A DNA stretch of 42,012 nt from a virus (taxonomy: Duplodnaviria > Heunggongvirae > Uroviricota > Caudoviricetes): the IMG/VR virus record IMGVR_UViG_2563366969_000002, one strand, 5' to 3'. The notes beneath the pieces are model-generated. The model saw nothing but the letters and a program-made list of their open reading frames with translations, was not told the DNA's origin and ran no database searches. Positions 1 to 34,876 of the stretch are shown here, piece after piece. The translations under genes were made by a program, and so were the position numbers. Each line of letters starts with the position of its first letter. Position 1 is the first letter of the stretch.

Positions 1-1074
1 TCATTTGTCGATTTCAATTTTGTCCCATTCCCGTCCACGGCTGTCCCTATACCGCGCCGCCATTGAATATGATTTATGCCCGAGAAGACGTTGAGCAAAC
101 TTATCGCCAATCTGGTTCCGGTATAGCCTCGCTGACAGGCTACGCAGTTCATGGAATGTTGGCGGGTCTCCATCAAATGAGAGTCCAGATGCATTTCTCG
201 CCTTTGTAAAATACTTCGATACTGTTTTAGGGGAAAGCGGATCGTGATGCTTTGATGCGATTATAGTTTCACTGCCGCTGGCCTCCCTGCATTTCTGTAG
301 TGTATCAGCCAATGAGATATTGAGCGCGTCAATCGTTAGCGTTAGCGGAATGGCGAGCTTAGCCCCTGTTTTACTCTGTTCAATGTGAAGATGGTTGTCG
401 TTTATGTCTGACCATTTCATTCTGCACAAATCGCCCACTCTCTGCCCTGTAACGACCGCCAAATCCATTGCCAGCCTCAGCCAGATTGGGAGAGGTTCGG
501 CTGCATGGTAAATCGCGACATACTCATTAGCTGTCAGCCTTGAGCGCCTTACTTCTGACTTTGCTGTACGGGTTGCTGTTACCGGATTCGTTGCCACATG
601 CCCCTCGGCTATTGCTTCACGAAAAACGTCAACAAGGGTTGACCTGATTAATTTTGCGGAAGCTGCTTTACCTTCTGCTACGTAGGTGTTTAGCATTGCT
701 GCCACTTCTTTCGTTGATATGTCAGTGAGCGGTTTGTCCGGCAATTTTCTTCGGATTGCCCTGATTTTGCTGGCGTAGTCGAGTAGAGTTTTCGGCCTGA
801 TCCCCCTTTCGGTGAGGATTCTTTCATATCGGTCAAGCCACACATGAAGAGTGATTGCGTCACCGCCTTTAATTCTGTCTATCAGTGATTTGCGTCCGCT
901 GTCTGAGAGTAACTCAATATTGGCCTGTATTGCTTCAGTAATTGCTATCCTCCTGTCTCTGCCTAATCCGAACTCTTTACCCGTCCTTGGGTCCCTGTAG
1001 CAGTAATATCCATTGTTTCTTATATAAAGATTAGGGGGTAAATCCCGGCGCTCATGACTTCGCCTTCTTCCCAT
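1..1074 (-). CDS. int: Tyrosine integrase, lambda Int family
   Basis: 357-aa ORF; N-terminal arm-binding region MGRRRSHERRDLPPNLYIRNNGYYCYRDPRTGKEFGLGRDRRIAITEAIQANIEL and C-terminal catalytic region (HELRSLSARLY...LLGHKS...) match recalled lambda Int; central part diverged. Stop codon is at pos 1-3, so the gene is complete and the att site is outside the window. Confidence 0.95.
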   Translation of the reverse strand: MGRRRSHERRDLPPNLYIRNNGYYCYRDPRTGKEFGLGRDRRIAITEAIQANIELLSDSGRKSLIDRIKGGDAITLHVWLDRYERILTERGIRPKTLLDYASKIRAIRRKLPDKPLTDISTKEVAAMLNTYVAEGKAASAKLIRSTLVDVFREAIAEGHVATNPVTATRTAKSEVRRSRLTANEYVAIYHAAEPLPIWLRLAMDLAVVTGQRVGDLCRMKWSDINDNHLHIEQSKTGAKLAIPLTLTIDALNISLADTLQKCREASGSETIIASKHHDPLSPKTVSKYFTKARNASGLSFDGDPPTFHELRSLSARLYRNQIGDKFAQRLLGHKSYSMAARYRDSRGREWDKIEIDK

Positions 1075-1270
1075 TTTTGATCCTCTTCAAAAGGCTACCT
1101 GTTACTGGTCGATTTAAGTCAACCTTTACCGCTGATTCGTGGAACAGATACTCTCTTCCATCCTTAACCGGAGGAGGGAATATCCTGCACTCGCGTACCC
1201 ATCGACGAACTGTTTCAAGGCTTCTTGGGCGTCGCTGGCGTGCGTTCCACTCCTGAAGTGTCAAGTACAT
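1052..1270 (-). CDS. xis: Excisionase
   Basis: 72-aa ORF MYLTLQEWNARQRRPRSLETVRRWVRECRIFPPP... matches recalled lambda Xis; overlaps int start as in lambda. Confidence 0.9.
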   Translation of the reverse strand: MYLTLQEWNARQRRPRSLETVRRWVRECRIFPPPVKDGREYLFHESAVKVDLNRPVTGSLLKRIKNGKKAKS

Positions 1271-1383
1271 CGCAAAGTCTCCGCAATTACACGCAAGAAA
1301 AAACCGCCATCAGGCGGCTTGGTGTTCTTTCAGTTCTTCAATTCGAATATTGGTTACATTGTTTTCATATATGAATAAATAAA

Positions 1384-1563
1384 TTAGCTTTTTTCGTTGC
1401 CTTCGCGTTCTTTATTAATTTTGACAAACTTGTTTTTACCACGCTCTCCAAATGCGTCTTTAGAGTCGTTGTATCCGCAATCGCAGCACACATAATCACC
1501 AGACCATCCACGCATTGTTTTTTCTTTTGCAATATTTCCAGAACCGCATTTTGGACAAGACAT
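1384..1563 (-). CDS. Small zinc-ribbon protein (ea8.5 position)
   Basis: 59-aa ORF from ATG with GGAGG 7 nt upstream; CPKCG...(x)...CCDCG four-cysteine motif; AT-rich. Function unknown. Confidence 0.5.
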   Translation of the reverse strand: MSCPKCGSGNIAKEKTMRGWSGDYVCCDCGYNDSKDAFGERGKNKFVKINKEREGNEKS

Positions 1564-1659
1564 ATCACTACCTCCAAAGCATGAGTGAGATGACAACGTA
1601 ACATTGATTGGAGATTAACAATAGATTGCTGATGTAAAAGATATGTATAAGCTTCGCTT

Positions 1660-2313
1660 TCAAAGTGGAGGCTCTGGTAGCGGCATCCAGTGAGTTACGT
1701 CATCCAAGATATTTCCTGATAAATACGTGAAAGCTCTATATTTTTTGTAATCAATTGGATTTACAACCCAGTTCCAATATGCGGCCACGATTTCACCTTG
1801 ACTAAATGCCAGTAACATTTTGGTGTCTTCCGGCATTCGATCACTACAGCTTATCCAACCACCCGGAGTTACCGGAGAGTTGCCGCGTTCTTTAATGTGC
1901 AAGCGAGGCTCACCATCTTTTGGTTCAGGCCACTGGCGTTCCATGTTGATCTTCAATTTATTTTCCATAGCAGCGGTAATTTCAGCATCACTGATACCAG
2001 CACGGCGCTGTGCATCCCACAACAGAAACTGCATATCAGCCCACTCGCTAAGATCGTCTGGTTCGGCTGCGGCTTCCAGTGCCTCTTTTGAGAGATGTTT
2101 CAGCGGACCAATGGGGCCAACGCAGCCAAATGTGGAGTCAGACCATTTGGCATGCTCGTGGCGAATCTGTTCGCGTTCCAGTGAGGCGAGAGCGATTTTA
2201 AATGCTGTAAGCATGTGTGCTTGATCGTTGTCGAGTCCGAATGGCATTTCATCTCGTGCTGACTCAATACTGGTAATCGTATTTTGTAGCCATTCTTTGG
2301 TAAAAGTGCTCAT
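1660..2313 (-). CDS. Hypothetical protein, DUF550/DUF551-like (ea22 region)
   Basis: 217-aa ORF; C-terminal ...YLSGNILDDVTHWMPLPEPP resembles recalled DUF551 phage proteins. Family assignment from memory only. Confidence 0.55.
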   Translation of the reverse strand: MSTFTKEWLQNTITSIESARDEMPFGLDNDQAHMLTAFKIALASLEREQIRHEHAKWSDSTFGCVGPIGPLKHLSKEALEAAAEPDDLSEWADMQFLLWDAQRRAGISDAEITAAMENKLKINMERQWPEPKDGEPRLHIKERGNSPVTPGGWISCSDRMPEDTKMLLAFSQGEIVAAYWNWVVNPIDYKKYRAFTYLSGNILDDVTHWMPLPEPPL

Positions 2314-2681
2314 CGTAAAATATCCTCTATACTGGTAAGTCCTTCATTATTTAGCCAGATCATGGCGTCATCCGGCAACTTGCTGTCTGGTTTGGCGTTT
2401 TTGAGAGAGGAACTCAGTCGCTTAATCCACATTGTCACCTCAGTAATGCGCCTGTCTTTGCCTTCCAGCTCAACACGCAGCTTCCCTACCGTTAGCGCAA
2501 TATCCTCGTTCTCCTGGTCGCGGCGTTTGATGTATTGCTGGTTTCTTTCCCGTTCATCCAGCAGTTCCAGCACAATCGATGGTGTTACCAATTCATGGAA
2601 AAGGTCTGCGTCAAATCCCCAGTCGTCATGCATTGCCTGCTCTGCCGCTTCACGCAGTGCCTGAGAGTTAATTTCGCTCAC
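2310..2681 (-). CDS. Ead/Ea22-like protein
   Basis: 123-aa ORF starting MSEINSQALREAAEQAMHDDWGFDADLFHELVTPSIV..., typical N-terminus of Ea22-like proteins of E. coli lambdoid prophages (recalled). Confidence 0.6.
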   Translation of the reverse strand: MSEINSQALREAAEQAMHDDWGFDADLFHELVTPSIVLELLDERERNQQYIKRRDQENEDIALTVGKLRVELEGKDRRITEVTMWIKRLSSSLKNAKPDSKLPDDAMIWLNNEGLTSIEDILR

Positions 2682-2899
2682 TTCGAACCTCTCTGTTTAC
2701 TGATAAGCTCCAGATCTTCCTGGCAACTTGCACAAGTCCGACAACCCTGAACGGCCAAGCGTCTTCGTTCATCTATCGGATCGCCACACTCACAACAATG
2801 AGTGGCAGATATAGCCTGGTGGTTCAGGCGGCACATTTTTATTGCTGTGTTGCGCTGTAATTCTTCAATTTCTGATGCTGAATCAATGATGTCTGCCAT
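2678..2899 (-). CDS. TraR/DksA-type C4 zinc-finger protein
   Basis: 73-aa ORF with CxxC-x17-CxxC (CCECGDPIDERRRLAVQGCRTCASC). Confidence 0.7.
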   Translation of the reverse strand: MADIIDSASEIEELQRNTAIKMCRLNHQAISATHCCECGDPIDERRRLAVQGCRTCASCQEDLELISKQRGSK

Positions 2900-2997
2900 C
2901 TTTCATTAATCCCTGAATTGTTGGTTAATACGCTTGAGGGTGAATGCGAATAATAAAAAAGGAGCCTGTAGCTCCATGATGATTTTGTTTTTCATGC

Positions 2998-3279
2998 TCA
3001 CCGTTCCTTAAAGACGCCGTTTAACATGCCGATCGCCAGGCTTAAATGAGTCGGTGTGAATCCCATCAGCGTTACCGTTTCGCGGTGCTTCTTCAGTACG
3101 CTACGGCAAATGTCATCGACGTTTTTATCCGGAAACTGCTGTCTGGCTTTTTTGATTTCAGAATTAGCCTGACGGGCAATGCTGCGAAGGGCGTTTTCCT
3201 GCTGAGGTGTCACTGAACAAGCCCCATGTCGGCAAGCATAAGCACACAGAATATGAAGCCCGCAGCCAGAAAAATGCAT
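2998..3279 (-). CDS. Hypothetical protein (orf60a position)
   Basis: 93-aa ORF in early-left operon; no recognised family; start uncertain. Confidence 0.35.
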   Translation of the reverse strand: MHFSGCGLHILCAYACRHGACSVTPQQENALRSIARQANSEIKKARQQFPDKNVDDICRSVLKKHRETVTLMGFTPTHLSLAIGMLNGVFKER

Positions 3280-3289
3280 TCAGTGGTTG

Positions 3290-3481
3290 TCATACCTGGT
3301 CTCTCTCATCTGCTTCTGCTTTCGCCACCATCATTTCCAGTTTTTGTGAAAGGGATGTGGCTAACGTATGAAATTCTTTGTCTGTTTCTACTGGTATTGG
3401 CACAAACCTGATTCCAATTTGAGCGAGGCTATGTGCCATCTCGATACTCGTTCTTAACTCAACGGGAGATGCTTTGTGCAT
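3290..3481 (-). CDS. Lambda orf63-like protein
   Basis: 63-aa [37 protein letters not shown]... matches recalled lambda orf63. Confidence 0.6.
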   Translation of the reverse strand: MHKASPVELRTSIEMAHSLAQIGIRFVPIPVETDKEFHTLATSLSQKLEMMVAKAEADERDQV

Positions 3482-3642: not shown

Positions 3643-4313
3643 TGCTCCCCAAATACAAAACCAATTTCAGCCAGTGCCTCGTCCATTTTTTCGATGAACT
3701 CCGGCACCATCTCGTCAAAACTCGCCATGTAATTTTCATCCCGCTCAACCACGACATAATGCAGGCCTTCACGCTTCATCCGCGGGTCATAGTTGGCAAA
3801 GTACCAGGCATCTTTTCGCGTCACCCACATGCTGTACTGCACCTGGGCCATGTAAGCCGACTTTATGGCCTCGAAACCACCGAGCCGGAATTTCATGAAA
3901 TCCCGGGAGGTAAACGGGCATTTCAGTTCAAGGCCGTTGCCGTCACTGCATAAACCATCGGGAGAGCAGGCGGTGCGCATACTTTCGTCGCGATAGATGA
4001 TCGGGGATTCAGTAACATTCACGCCGGAAGTGAATTCAAACAGAGTTCTGGCGTCGTTCTCGTACTGTTTTCCCCAGGCCAGTGCTTTAGCGTTAACTTC
4101 CGGAGCCACACCGGTGCAAACCTCGGCAAGCAGGGTGTGGAAGTAGGACATTTTCATGTCAGGCCACTTTTTTCCGGAGCGGGGTTTTGCTATCACATTG
4201 TGAACTTCTGAAGCGGTGATGACGCCGAGCCGTAATTTGTGCCACGCATCATCTCCCTGCTCGATAGCTCTCACGTCGATCCCGGTACGCTGCAGGATAA
4301 TGTCCGGTGTCAT
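3633..4313 (-). CDS. exo: Lambda exonuclease (Red alpha)
   Basis: 226-aa [65 protein letters not shown]... matches recalled lambda Exo. Confidence 0.95.
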
Positions 4314-5095
4314 GCTGCCACCTTCTGTTCAGTGGCTTTTTGTTTCAGGAATCCAAGAGCTTTCACTGCTTCGTCCTGTGTCAGTTCTGACGATGAACGA
4401 ATGTCGCGGCGAAATATCTGGGAACAGAGCGGCAATAAGTCGTCATCCCATGTTTTATCCAGGGCGATCAGCAGAGTGTTAATCTCCTGCATGGTTTCAT
4501 CGTTAACCGGAGTGATGTCGCGTTCCGGCTGACGTTCTGCAGTGTATGCGGTATTTTCGACAATGCGCTCGGCTTCATCCTTGTCATAGATACCAGTAAA
4601 TCCGAAGGACAGACGGGCACACTGAATCATGGCTTTATGCCGTAACATCCGTTTGGGATGCGACTGCCACGGTCCGGTGATTTCTCTGCCTTCGCGGGTT
4701 TTGAATGGTTCGCGGCGGCATTCATCCATCCACTCGGTAACGCAGATCGGATGATTGCGGTCTTTGCGGTAAATCCGGCATGTGCAGGATTCGTTGTCCT
4801 GTTCAAAGTCCATGCCATCAAACTGCTGGTTTTCGTTGATGATGCGGGACCAGCCATCAACGCCCACCACCGGAACGATGCCGTTCTGCTTATCAGGGAA
4901 GGCGTAAATTTCTTTCGTCCACGGATTAAGGCCGTATTGGTTGGCGACGATCAGCAATGCGATGAACTGCGCATCGCTGGCATCGCCTTTAAATGCTGTC
5001 TGGCGAAGAGTGGTGATCAGTTCCTGTGGGTCGACAGAATCCATGCCGACACGTTCAGCCAGCTTCCCAGCCAGCGTTGCGAGTGCTGTACTCAT
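4310..5095 (-). CDS. bet: Recombinase Beta (Red beta)
   Basis: 261-aa [62 protein letters not shown]... matches recalled lambda Bet; overlaps exo start. Confidence 0.95.
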
Positions 5096-5100
5096 CCGTT

Positions 5101-5397
5101 TTATACCTCTGAATCAATATCAACCTGGTGGTGAGCAATGGTTTCAACCATGTACCGGATGTGTTCTGCCATGCGCTCCTGAAACTCAACATCGTCATCA
5201 AACGCACGGGTAATGGCTTTTTTGCTGGCCCCGTGACGTTGCAAATGATCGATGCAGAGCGATTCAAACAAATGCTGGGGCAGACCCTTTTCCAGGTCGT
5301 CTGCCAGTTCTGCCTCTTTCTCTTCACGGGCGATCTGCTGGTAGTGACGCGCCCAGCTCTGAGCCTCAAGACGATCCTGAATGTAATAAGCGTTCAT
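5101..5397 (-). CDS. gam: Gam (RecBCD inhibitor), 98-aa form
   Basis: [60 protein letters not shown]... matches recalled lambda GamS. Confidence 0.9.
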
Positions 5398-5472
5398 GGC
5401 TGAACTCCTGAAAATGGCTGTGAAAATAGCGCCCGCGAAATGCCAGGCTGATTAGGAAAACAGGAAAGGGGG

Positions 5473-5616
5473 TTAGTGAATGCTTTTGCTTGATCTCAGT
5501 TTCAGTATTAATATCCATTTTTTATAAGCGTCGACGGCCTCACGAAACATCTTTTCATCGCCAATAAAAGTGGCGATAGTGAATTTAGTCTGGATAGCCA
5601 TAAGTGTTTGATCCAT
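5473..5616 (-). CDS. kil: Kil (host-killing, FtsZ inhibitor)
   Basis: 47-aa reading frame [47 protein letters not shown] matches recalled lambda Kil; internal start within a longer listed ORF. Confidence 0.75.
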
Positions 5617-5749
5617 TTTTTGGGACTCCTGGCTGATTAAGTATGTCGATAAGGCGTTTCCATCCGTCACGTAATTTACGGGTGATTCGTTCAAGTAAAG
5701 ATTCGGAAGGGCAGCCAGCAACAGGCCACCCTGCAATGGCATATTGCAT
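5585..5749 (-). CDS. cIII: cIII (protects cII from FtsH)
   Basis: Hand translation gives [54 protein letters not shown], matching recalled lambda cIII (54 aa); below the ORF-track size cutoff. Confidence 0.75.
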   Translation of the reverse strand: MQYAIAGWPVAGCPSESLLERITRKLRDGWKRLIDILNQPGVPKNGSNTYGYPD

Positions 5750-5821
5750 GGTGTGCTCCTTATTTATACATAACGAAAAACGCCTCGAGTGAAGCGTTAT
5801 TGGTATGCGGTAACGCCGCGC

Positions 5822-6210: not shown

Positions 6211-6236
6211 AAAAAATCGCCCTCACACTGGAGGGC
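6211..6236 (-). terminator. Intrinsic terminator-like hairpin in leftward operon
   Basis: GCCCTC-loop-GAGGGC stem, followed by a T-run when read on the minus strand (A-run 6211-6216 on plus). Confidence 0.45.
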
Positions 6237-6393
6237 AAAGAAGATTTCCAATAATCAGAACAAGTCGGCTCCTGTTTAGTTACGAGCGACATTGCTCCGT
6301 GTATTCACTCGTTGGAATGAATACACAGTGCAGTGTTTATTCTGTTATTTATGCCAAAAATAAAGGCCACTATCAGGCAGCTTTGTTGTTCTG

Positions 6394-30589: not shown

Positions 30590-32411
30590 GCTTAAGGCGT
30601 TGATCACCGGTGTCGACAGGCTTTCTCCCGCGCTGTCGAAAATGCAAAAGAAAATCCGGGGATTTAAACGCCAGGCGGAAGAAGCGTCACAGGGTGGGCT
30701 GGCGCTTGGTGGCGGACTGGCAGCGGGTCTGACGCTTTCCCTGAAATCTTATGCCGATCAGGAAAACGCCGCCACCGGGCTGAAAGTCGCCATGATGGAT
30801 GCGAACGGCGAGGTTGGAAAGAGCTTTCAGGACATCAATAAACTGGCTATTGGCCTGGGTAACCAGCTACCCGGTACAACGGCTGATTTCCAGAACATGA
30901 TGCAGATGCTGGTGCGTCAGGGGATCCCGGCAGAAAACATTCTTGGCGGTGTGGGTAAAGCGACAGCTTATCTTGCGGTACAACTGAAAAAAACACCGGA
31001 AGCGGCTGCCGAGTTTGCTGCAAAGATGCAGGATGCTACCGGAACGGTGTCAGAAGACATGATGGGGCTGTTCGACACTATCCAGAAGGCGTTTTATCTG
31101 GGTGTTGACGATACCAACATGTTGTCCTTCTTCACTAAAACCAGCTCTGTTCTGAAGATGGTGAACAAGGACGGTCTTCAGGCTGCACAGAGCCTTGCCC
31201 CCATCAGCGTCATGATGGATCAGATGGGGATGAACGGGGAGTCGGCAGGTAACGCCCTGCGAAAAGTTATCCAGTCCGGATTAAGCGTTAAGAAAATCAG
31301 GGACGTCAATAAAATCATGGCCCGCCAGAAACTCGGGGTACAGCTCGATTTTACTGACGGCAAAGGAAGTTTTGGCGGTCTTGATAACATGTTCAGGCAA
31401 CTGGCAAAGCTGCGAAAACTGACCGACGTTAAGCGAACAGGTGTACTTAAGGCAATATTTGGTGATGATGCCGAAACCCTTCAGGTGGTCAATGCACTAA
31501 TCGATAAAGGAAAGGATGGCTACGATCAGATCCAGCAAAAGATGAATAAACAGGCCAGCCTGAATAAACGTGTTCAGGCCCAGCTTGGTACGCTGTCCAA
31601 CCTGTGGGAGGCAATGACGGGGACCGCAACTAACGGCCTTGCGGCTATTGGCGGCGCATTTTCTGGTGACGCCAAAAATATCACGCAATGGCTGGGGGAG
31701 TTAGGGGAAAAATTCACGAAGTTTGCGGATGAAAATCCCCGGGTTATTCGCGGCGTCGTCGGGCTTGCTGCCGGTCTTGCGATTCTGAAACTGGGATTGA
31801 TGGGCGTTGGCGGTGCCATCAGTATTGTCAGCAGGATCATGTCGATGACGCCGATTGGAATGATTGCGACGGCGATAGCCCTGGCTGCGGGATTAATTAT
31901 CACTAACTGGGATGTTGTCGGACCTTATTTCAAGAAGCTCTGGGAAACCATTGGTCCTTATTTTGAGGCTGGCTGGGAACTTCTGAAGAAGGTTTTTGCC
32001 TGGTCGCCGCTGGGGATGGTAATCAATAACTGGGGACCGGTTGTTAAGTGGTTTCAGGATATGTGGGACAAACTGAAGCCAATTATTGAGTGGTTTACCG
32101 ACAGTTCCGGTGACACGGTCGATGCCATTAACTCTGCGCAGTGGGGCGCGGGTGCTTATGATGCTTATGGGACGGGAATACCGGCACGGGGATACACACC
32201 TTATCAGGCGGTAGATCCGGCTCAGTCAAACAACGCCTCCGGTGCCACAGGCCCGAATCCCTTCATGATTAACAAAGCTTCTGCGCCAAAAGTTGATGGT
32301 GAGATCAAGGTCTCTTTTGTGAATTCGCCTCCGGGTATGCGGGTTATGGAAACGCGATCCAGCGGTTTTGATGTCAGCCATGATGTTGGCTATACGCGCT
32401 TTGGCAGGTAA
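30576..32411 (+). CDS. Tail tape measure protein
   Basis: 611-aa ORF, Ala/Gly-rich helical repeats and hydrophobic segment; position after frameshifted chaperone. Confidence 0.88.
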   Translation: MAEFELKALITGVDRLSPALSKMQKKIRGFKRQAEEASQGGLALGGGLAAGLTLSLKSYADQENAATGLKVAMMDANGEVGKSFQDINKLAIGLGNQLPGTTADFQNMMQMLVRQGIPAENILGGVGKATAYLAVQLKKTPEAAAEFAAKMQDATGTVSEDMMGLFDTIQKAFYLGVDDTNMLSFFTKTSSVLKMVNKDGLQAAQSLAPISVMMDQMGMNGESAGNALRKVIQSGLSVKKIRDVNKIMARQKLGVQLDFTDGKGSFGGLDNMFRQLAKLRKLTDVKRTGVLKAIFGDDAETLQVVNALIDKGKDGYDQIQQKMNKQASLNKRVQAQLGTLSNLWEAMTGTATNGLAAIGGAFSGDAKNITQWLGELGEKFTKFADENPRVIRGVVGLAAGLAILKLGLMGVGGAISIVSRIMSMTPIGMIATAIALAAGLIITNWDVVGPYFKKLWETIGPYFEAGWELLKKVFAWSPLGMVINNWGPVVKWFQDMWDKLKPIIEWFTDSSGDTVDAINSAQWGAGAYDAYGTGIPARGYTPYQAVDPAQSNNASGATGPNPFMINKASAPKVDGEIKVSFVNSPPGMRVMETRSSGFDVSHDVGYTRFGR

Positions 32412-32471
32412 TGAAAAATTAATCTGTTAATGAGTCCCACTCCGGTGGGATTTTTTATGTACGGAGTTTAT

Positions 32472-33800
32472 ATGACGTGGAAAGACAGACTTCAGGACGC
32501 GTCATTTCGCGGTGTGCCGTTTAAGGTTGAAGAAGAAAGTGCGGGAACCGGTCGTCGTGTGGAAACGCACGAATACCCGAACCGCGACAAGCCCTATACT
32601 GAAGATCTGGGAAAAGTCACTTTCCGCCCGTCCATCACGGCTTATGTGGTGGGAGATGACTGCTTTGACCAGCGCGATCGCCTGATTGACGCGCTGAATA
32701 AACCCGGTCCCGGCACGCTTGTCCATCCGACATACGGTGAGCTGAAAGTCTGTGTTGACGGGGAGGTTCGGGTCAGCACATCGAAGAGTGAAGGGCGTAT
32801 TGTCCGCTTTGACCTGAAGTTTGTCGAAGCGGGAGAACTCTCTTACCCCACATCAGGTGCGGCGACGGCGCAGACGCTGATGTCATCCTGTTCTGCACTG
32901 GATGACTGCATCAGTGACAGCTTCAGCGGTTTCAGTATCGATGGCGTAGCGGATTTTGTGCAGAACGACGTCGTTGGTAATGTCAGCACAATGCTTGGGT
33001 ATGTTTCTGATGCGATGAAAGTGGTGGATTCTGCCGTATCGGATGCGGCCAGGCTGTTGCAGGGGGATATCTCGGTACTTCTGCCGCCACCATCGTCAGG
33101 CAAAAATTTCGTTGAGCAGGTGCAGAAAATGTGGCGTACCGGGAAACGCCTTTATGGTAACGCCAGCGACCTGGTCACCATGATCAAAACGCTTTCCGGT
33201 GTCAGCCTCGGCAGCGATCTGCAACCGCGCGGCGTCTGGAAAACGGACAGTAAAACCACCGCCACGGCTACGCAGCAGCGTAACGTGGTTGCCAGCACCC
33301 TTCGTACGACCGCAATCAGCGAAGCGGCGTATGCCGTCACCCGATTGCCTGCGCCAACAACTTCCGCGGTGATGCAGAATGCCGCAGTGGGGCAGGCAAC
33401 AACACCCGCGCAGAGCACTGGCTGGCCTTCCGTCACGCATCCGGCACTGAACAATGCACCGGCGGTGAAAAGCACGGTTGACCTGCCGACGTGGGAAGAA
33501 CTGACTGACATTCGCTACACACTGAATACGGCAATTGATAAGGAGTTGTCCCGTACAACCAGTGATGCGCTGTTTCTGGCGCTGCGCCGGGTGAAAGCAG
33601 ATCTGAATGCGGATATCAACACGCGCCTTGAACAGTCTGCACGGATCATTCAGCGCACGCCGGATGAGGTTTTACCCGCGCTGGTGCTGGCGGCGACCTG
33701 GTTTGATAACGCGGCGCGTGACGCGGACATTATCCGGCGTAATGCCATTACGCATCCCGGCTTTGTGCCGGTGATCCCTCTGAAGGTGCCAGTGCAATGA
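32472..33800 (+). CDS. DNA circulation protein-like (Mu gpN-like)
   Basis: ATG 32472 (MTWKDRLQDASFRGVPFKVEEESAGTGRRVETHEYPNRDKPYTEDLG...) typical N-terminus of Mu N family; listed ORF start at 32430 lies inside an upstream hairpin. Confidence 0.75.
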   Translation: MTWKDRLQDASFRGVPFKVEEESAGTGRRVETHEYPNRDKPYTEDLGKVTFRPSITAYVVGDDCFDQRDRLIDALNKPGPGTLVHPTYGELKVCVDGEVRVSTSKSEGRIVRFDLKFVEAGELSYPTSGAATAQTLMSSCSALDDCISDSFSGFSIDGVADFVQNDVVGNVSTMLGYVSDAMKVVDSAVSDAARLLQGDISVLLPPPSSGKNFVEQVQKMWRTGKRLYGNASDLVTMIKTLSGVSLGSDLQPRGVWKTDSKTTATATQQRNVVASTLRTTAISEAAYAVTRLPAPTTSAVMQNAAVGQATTPAQSTGWPSVTHPALNNAPAVKSTVDLPTWEELTDIRYTLNTAIDKELSRTTSDALFLALRRVKADLNADINTRLEQSARIIQRTPDEVLPALVLAATWFDNAARDADIIRRNAITHPGFVPVIPLKVPVQ

Positions 33801-34876
33801 ACGACAATGTCACGCTACGGGTAAATGGCCGGGAGTGGAATGGCTGGACATCGGTGCGCATCGGTGCCGGTATTGAACGGCTGGCGCGGGATTTCAGTGT
33901 GGAGATCACCCGCCAGTGGCCGGGAGATGAGGGTATCACCACGCTTCAGCCGCGCATTAAAAACGGTTCAAAAGTGGAAGTGCTGATTGGTGATGAGCTG
34001 GTGATCACCGGCTGGGTGGAGGCGACGCCCGTTCGTTACGATGCCCGTTCGGTCAGCACCGGTATTGCCGGACGTAGTCTGACGGCTGACCTGATTGACT
34101 GTGCAGCCGAACCGACACAGTTTAACGGACGCTCGCTGGTGCAGATTGCGCAGGCGCTTGCTGCGCCTTTCGGCATTGAGGTGGTGAACAGCGGTGCGCC
34201 GTCGGGTGTTATTCCTGACGTCCAGCCTGATCACGGTGAAACGGTGATTGAGGTAATCAACAAAATACTCGGTCAGCAGCAGGCACTGGCTTACGACGAC
34301 CCGTACGGCAGGCTGGTGATTGGCGGTATTGGCTCAACGCGGGCACATACCGCGCTGGTACTCGGGGAAAACATCCTTTCCTGTGATACGGAGAAGAGTA
34401 TCCGGGAGCGGTTTTCAGTTTACCAGGTGGCGGGGCAGCGTGCCGGAAACGACGATGATTTCGGTGAGGCCACCACCACCGCGCTGCGGGCCCGCACAGA
34501 GGACGCATTTATTGCCCGTTACCGTCCGATGTATATCAGGCAGACAGGGCAGGCCACGGGGGCAGGCTGTATTGCGCGTGCTGACTTTGAAGCCCGACAA
34601 CGGGCGGCGCGGACGGATGAAACCACCTATGTGGTGCAGGGCTGGCGACAGGGTAACGGTACGCTGTGGCAGCCCAACCAGCGGGTGATTGTCTTTGATC
34701 CGGTCTGTGGTTTTGACAATACCGAACTGCTTGTTTCGGAAGTCACGTTTACTCAGGACCAGAACGGCACCCTGACGGAAATCCGTGTCGGCCCACCTGA
34801 TGCTTATCTGCCTGAACCCGAAGCCCCCGGCGCGCGGAAAAAGAAAAAAGCCAGAGTACAGGAGGACCCGTTCTGA
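33797..34876 (+). CDS. Baseplate hub protein (Mu gpP-like)
   Basis: 359-aa ORF, synteny within Mu-type tail cluster. Confidence 0.75.
   Translation: MNDNVTLRVNGREWNGWTSVRIGAGIERLARDFSVEITRQWPGDEGITTLQPRIKNGSKVEVLIGDELVITGWVEATPVRYDARSVSTGIAGRSLTADLIDCAAEPTQFNGRSLVQIAQALAAPFGIEVVNSGAPSGVIPDVQPDHGETVIEVINKILGQQQALAYDDPYGRLVIGGIGSTRAHTALVLGENILSCDTEKSIRERFSVYQVAGQRAGNDDDFGEATTTALRARTEDAFIARYRPMYIRQTGQATGAGCIARADFEARQRAARTDETTYVVQGWRQGNGTLWQPNQRVIVFDPVCGFDNTELLVSEVTFTQDQNGTLTEIRVGPPDAYLPEPEAPGARKKKKARVQEDPF

Follow-up and report, generated by a model that had tools for sequence, protein, structure and literature searches.

An extra T in the kil-gam spacer of a lambdoid phage removes the long Gam reading frame and is a common natural allele

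The gam locus of the lambdoid phage genome analyzed here (the window, the whole stretch of 42,012 nucleotides) differs from that of phage lambda by one additional T between kil and gam. The extra base shifts an ATG inside kil out of the gam frame, so that the 138-aa GamL form annotated in lambda cannot be made, and leaves the 98-aa GamS form intact. This +1T allele is the commoner natural allele and no peculiarity of the window phage; it is an ordinary variant that is already known and annotated. We consider it very probable that the insertion is a neutral, widespread polymorphism of the spacer, that GamS is made and GamL is not, and that the long open reading frame (ORF) of lambda is dispensable.

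Results

The window (positions 1-42012) is a mosaic lambdoid genome. From the int end, ~1-19.7 kb form an early region that is lambda/mEp332-like at 94-96% identity, and the part from ~20.5 kb to the window end is SfII/SfI/SfV-like (~96-97% identity), with terminase, sheathed tail and gtr serotype-conversion genes. The genes follow the order cIII-kil-gam-bet of the lambda Red/pL operon type, all on the minus strand (Table 1), and because bet adjoins gam we assign the locus to the lambda Red operon. The interval of interest, 5398-5518, consists of the 3' end of kil and a 75-nt kil-gam spacer that includes the gam ribosome-binding site. Within it, the 3'-terminal 46 nt of kil overlap the beginning of the would-be GamL ORF in a different frame.

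Table 1. Features of the kil-gam region and its neighbors in the window.
Feature	Coordinates	Strand	Basis or remark
cIII	5585-5749	-	ORF list
kil, 47-aa form	5473..5616	-	Start at 5616 with Shine-Dalgarno; 144 nt, equal to the lambda kil annotation
Upstream ATG, counterpart of the lambda GamL start	5516..5518	-	Within the kil 3' end; without Shine-Dalgarno
50-codon ORF from the upstream ATG	5366..5518	-	ORF list and translation; probably not a gene
Terminator-like hairpin, GCCTG..CGGGC with 8-nt loop, then GCTATTTTCA	5421..5448	-	kil-gam spacer; consensus scan
T4 run with one extra T (T3 in lambda), frameshifting indel	5411..5414	-	Pairwise alignment with lambda
GamS Shine-Dalgarno, AGGAG	5405..5409	-	7 nt before the ATG; duplex energy -6.9 kcal/mol, same in lambda
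gam, GamS form, 98 aa, intact	5101..5397	-	ATG 5397-5395; host-nuclease (RecBCD) inhibitor family
bet	4310..5095	-	Directly downstream of gam

As a comparator we used positions 32000-34500 of lambda NC_001416, where gam occupies the same kil-gam-bet position and is annotated as the 138-aa form (32816..33232), GamS being its residues 41-138. The Shine-Dalgarno sequence and its spacing to the GamS ATG are identical in the two phages, and the upstream interval has 97% column identity. The distance between the two ATGs, however, is 121 nt in the window (5518-5397; 121 mod 3 = 1) and 120 nt in lambda. With the 121-nt spacing the upstream ATG falls in frame +1 with respect to gamS, and thus outside the gam frame, and opens a 50-codon ORF instead of the 138-aa GamL, and no in-frame ATG lies 40 codons upstream of the GamS Met in the window. 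A sequence-only reading of this DNA had put the upstream ATG at 5516-5518, 121 nt from the GamS ATG and out of frame, while suspecting that its manual count might be wrong. The ORF list, the alignment and the arithmetic all bear out the count, which contains no error, and the alignment with the lambda gam 5' region that it proposed returned 121 against 120 nt rather than identical spacing.

Pairwise alignment with NC_001416 contains a single indel across the interval. At this site lambda reads AGCTA-TTTCAGGAG and the window AGCCATTTTCAGGAG; in wider context, lambda has ...CACAGCTA-TTTCAGGAGTTCAGCCATG where the window has ...CACAGCCATTTTCAGGAGTTCAGCCATG. A T3 run in lambda is thus a T4 run in the window, and the extra T lies directly 5' of the GamS Shine-Dalgarno sequence. 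Three substitutions (lambda vs window) accompany the indel, at positions 5416 (T>C), 5429 (A>C) and 5445 (C>T). The sequence-only reading had recognized that a T was added relative to lambda but located it near 5425-5430, and only the first part of that claim stands, since the true site is ~12 nt downstream. The T-run at 5423-5426 is of equal length in both phages, and within 5425-5430 they differ only by the substitution at 5429. The suspected run belongs to the terminator-like hairpin element of the spacer (Table 1).

The 50-codon ORF follows the lambda GamL frame for 35 codons, then diverges and stops 30 nt inside gamS. Its product has no Pfam match, and the ORF is not annotated by PGAP in genomes that carry the same allele. 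Standard translation that begins at 5518 does not lead into the Gam domain, and the GamS ORF is intact, in support of the earlier suggestion that the 98-aa Gam is the only form made.

The window Gam matches Pfam family PF06064 at 216.5 bits (cut-off 25), with residues 1-98 on positions 1-98 of the 98-position model, and aligns over its full length with PDB entries 5MBV_A and 2UUZ_A (E about 6e-61). Membership in PF06064 by a full-length match, a relationship to the GamS structures and a position between kil and bet with a ribosome-binding site of its own were all found. Between the window protein and lambda GamS, 3 of 98 residues differ. Lambda GamS, the form present in the cryo-EM complex, inhibits RecBCD alone, as a dimer that imitates DNA and blocks the enzyme's DNA-binding channel (PMC5218532). 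On the basis of its ~97% identity to lambda GamS, the window protein is predicted to inhibit RecBCD as well.

The initiation signals of the two candidate starts differ sharply. Calculated Shine-Dalgarno energies (kcal/mol) are -6.9 for GamS, -7.1 for bet, -8.5 for cIII and -6.9 for kil, compared with an anti-Shine-Dalgarno duplex energy of +0.4 kcal/mol over the 20 nt before the upstream ATG, the same value in the window and in lambda. No Shine-Dalgarno-like pairing was found at the upstream ATG of either phage. Because the extra T lies upstream of the GamS Shine-Dalgarno sequence, and leaves both this sequence and its spacing to the ATG untouched, GamS expression is expected to be unaffected.

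We then asked how common the insertion is. IMG/VR was scanned with a gapped pattern anchored on both start regions, which returned at least 120 loci; together with lambda and the window these make 122 sequences. Among the matches listed, 75 of the 122 have the in-frame, lambda-like spacing of 120 nt, 38 have 121 nt and 9 have 119 nt. All 38 sequences with 121-nt spacing share the same CCATTTTCAGG haplotype, and the 119-nt spacing reflects a C5 run shortened to C4 just past the kil stop (the -1C allele). For complete genomes we used allele-specific 32-mers, in which each 28-nt megablast seed spans the diagnostic site. Of the 5426 complete E. coli genomes, 2234 carry the identical 32-mer of the +1T allele, with its linked T>C at 5416, at a total of 2531 places. 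The lambda-type allele was counted at 821 places (782 genomes) and the -1C allele at 32 (24 genomes). All of these counts are inflated by clonal sampling, for instance of O157 and other STEC prophages, so that the frequencies do not represent independent events. Deposited phage genomes comprise 89 records with the +1T allele and 86 with the lambda type.

Several known phages and prophages resemble the window at this locus. BP-4795 (AJ556162), AU5Stx1 and a prophage of E. coli SK1144 (WP_000995439) all have the extra T, the 121-nt spacing and a 98-aa Gam. Stx-converting and other lambdoid relatives differ from the window by point changes only, as at 5429, where the window has C and most relatives have A. 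RefSeq/PGAP gives Gam as 297 nt (98 aa) in genomes of either allele, and the authors of the BP-4795 sequence likewise annotate a 98-aa Gam.

The state of the long form was also assessed in a protein-anchored sample of 80 IMG/VR loci, chosen by similarity to the 98-aa protein only and blind to the upstream sequence. An in-frame ATG at least 40 codons upstream was present at 35 of these loci. The other 45 comprise 11 with +1T, one with -1C, one with both indels, 29 in which kil is replaced and three with unrelated upstream DNA. Most natural gam loci lack the in-frame GamL ORF of lambda. Apart from +1T, at least three other routes have abolished the long form in nature, namely the -1 C-run allele, the double indel and kil replacement. 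At the 29 replaced loci another gene stands instead of kil and lambda homology resumes at the kil stop codon, and so the ATG that begins MDINTE... does not exist there. The double-indel (+1T/-1C) locus has a spacing of 120 nt, yet a stop 18 codons before GamS interrupts its frame, as expected from neutral homopolymer drift. We considered whether a compensating second indel restores GamL and rejected the idea: a pattern scan of IMG/VR for one -1C/+1T haplotype returned none, and the sole double-indel haplotype, which is on another background, is the one closed by the stop.

More distant homologues lack the extension altogether. Five divergent Gam proteins from Citrobacter, Pseudescherichia, Escherichia sp. 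and unclassified Enterobacteriaceae (L146-L150; 68-74% identity) start at the GamS Met, behind an A/T-rich stretch and an AGGAG/AGGA-type Shine-Dalgarno sequence. Upstream of these five genes we found in-frame stops or no ATG, and no traces of the MDINTE... extension. The Citrobacter, Pseudescherichia and Enterobacteriaceae prophage proteins are 98 aa long and share the start Met of the window Gam, although the genes upstream of them are unrelated to those in the window. The 98 positions of PF06064 cover only residues 41-138 of lambda Gam and not the N-terminal extension, and the solved structures 5MBV and 2UUZ contain 98 and 99 residues. A scan of genome contigs yielded mostly lambda contamination of unrelated assemblies, and just seven loci were informative.

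Coding constraint on the extension was evaluated with the in-frame haplotypes, outside the kil overlap. Six of 14 distinct mutations are synonymous, compared with an expected fraction of 0.30 (P=0.22; a comparison of low power), and an off frame likewise gives six of 14. The gamS coding sequence, used as a control, gives a significant result in frame 0 alone, with 29 synonymous mutations of 58 (P=0.0004). An early hint of constraint, with five of nine changes synonymous, fell to six of 14 as haplotypes were added, and we rejected it. An open 40-codon frame arises by chance in 13% of shuffles and in 48% when the kil part is held fixed; the long ORF of lambda therefore needs no special explanation. 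Overall, the long Gam form looks dispensable. As the 138-aa ORF of lambda is both in the minority and not conserved, these results favor regarding the 98-aa GamS as the form that matters biologically.

Discussion

We propose that growth of the homopolymer at 5411-5414 from T3 to T4, just before the ribosome-binding site of gam, would have moved the ATG within kil (at 5518) away from the gam frame and so removed the 138-aa GamL, and that initiation at AGGAG-N7-ATG (5409-5395) would give the 98-aa GamS. The indel itself would be a selectively neutral, widespread natural polymorphism of a non-coding spacer. It would not count as a defect if, as we think, the extension that makes the lambda ORF long is dispensable and confined to one lineage.

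The persistence of the in-frame state, at 35 of the 80 protein-anchored loci and in 782 E. coli genomes, speaks for an opposing reading, in which GamL is a functional isoform and +1T a loss-of-function frameshift that is mildly deleterious or conditionally neutral. GamL and GamS have been treated as existing isoforms (PMC5218532; PMC11610958), and GamL expressed from a plasmid is active and was reported to outperform GamS slightly in some Klebsiella clinical isolates (PMC5218532), so that the extension is not demonstrably inert. The early third-position bias pointed the same way until it became indistinguishable from an off frame. Against such a loss, the upstream ATG lacks a Shine-Dalgarno sequence, the extension is missing from all divergent homologues and from the Pfam model, and it has disappeared by several independent routes, including a double indel of the kind typical of neutral homopolymer drift. 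In addition, the out-of-frame allele is ~3x more frequent in E. coli genomes. We regard the loss of a functional isoform as improbable. It is very improbable that the T3/T4 difference switches a second Gam isoform with properties of its own on and off in nature, or that the 50-aa peptide is functional. If either were true, lambdoid phages would form two functional classes, which might differ, for example, in potency or host range against RecBCD, SbcCD or Gam-sensing defence systems.

Two further alternatives were weighed. A homopolymer run is a classic site of sequencing or assembly error, and the sequence-only reading doubted its own count; on this view the true sequence would be lambda-like and in frame. 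This is extremely improbable, and we excluded it: the allele travels with the T>C substitution at 5416, the exact 32-mer recurs thousands of times in complete genomes from many laboratories and platforms, and the deposited phage genomes that carry it include the Sanger-era BP-4795. Lastly, a programmed +1 frameshift in translation, or slippage during transcription at the T-run, could restore the frame, and T-runs can in principle support slippage. Alternatively, the 50-aa peptide could be functional in its own right; its ORF is annotated in one deposited phage, by annotation transfer only. For slippage in transcription to be efficient, however, a run of four T is generally too short. Read directly, the zero frame at the site, CAC AGC CAT TTT CAG GAG TTC, contains no known +1 shift motif with a stimulator, and no in-frame stop, rare hungry codon or stimulatory upstream Shine-Dalgarno sequence at the T-run. 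Few ribosomes would reach the run in any case, because the upstream ATG has no Shine-Dalgarno sequence. The 50-aa peptide lacks a Pfam match, and its C-terminal 15 residues are unique to the +1T allele. To this set of possibilities we assign next to no probability.

The biological weight of the extra T is small, given an intact and normal gam and a long form that is missing in most relatives. Its practical value lies in annotation and concerns users of Gam in recombineering, cell-free expression and antibiotic potentiation. Annotation transfer from lambda can yield spurious "host-nuclease inhibitor" fragments. In OP797663 (phage 06-3462; L003 783-935), the out-of-frame 50-aa ORF is named 'host-nuclease inhibitor protein', a similarity-based transfer, and this CDS is likely spurious.

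Additional observations

The leftward operon contains terminator-like hairpins with T tracts at 5431-5448, 5779-5798 and 6217-6238 on the minus strand, three along the operon where 1.4 are expected from shuffles. The lambda record J02459 lists no terminator features, and a literature search on tL2 returned nothing relevant. The three hairpins are probably the counterpart of the lambda tL2 terminator cluster, located between bet and ral, and the one in the kil-gam spacer is presumably its tL2c member.

Two variations concern kil. In some IMG/VR relatives the kil stop is changed from TAA to TAC (CACTACCCCCC haplotypes; equivalent to 5473 in the window), which would lengthen Kil by ~7 residues into the kil-gam spacer. 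The gene that replaces kil at other loci is annotated by PGAP as 'phage encoded cell division inhibitor protein' (WP_000233577 in E. coli SK1144; L124 349-555). The junction is sharp and mosaic, with lambda homology beginning exactly at the kil stop (CACTAA).

E. coli ECMA0423 and Shigella flexneri SFBU1023 (L142 and L143; ~1498-1788) carry an 84%-identical gam homologue whose N-terminus reads QSAYPIF..., with no ATG at the GamS position. Either the copy is degraded or its start has diverged, in which case an in-frame GTG further upstream may serve.

Assemblies of unrelated bacteria contain lambda-identical gam regions, on contigs that are either ~48.4-48.5 kb long or very small and of low coverage (L130, L132-L138 and others). 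Shewanella canadensis, Pseudomonas spp., Neobacillus, Oceanobacillus, Kitasatospora, Leeuwenhoekiella and Chromatium are among these bacteria. These sequences are most likely lambda DNA contamination.

Finally, codon 35 of gam (5293-5295) encodes Leu35 in the window (ADDLEKG), and Met35 (ADDMEKG) is found in the common close relatives that were sampled. At this position the five divergent homologues have Leu in three cases and Ile in two.
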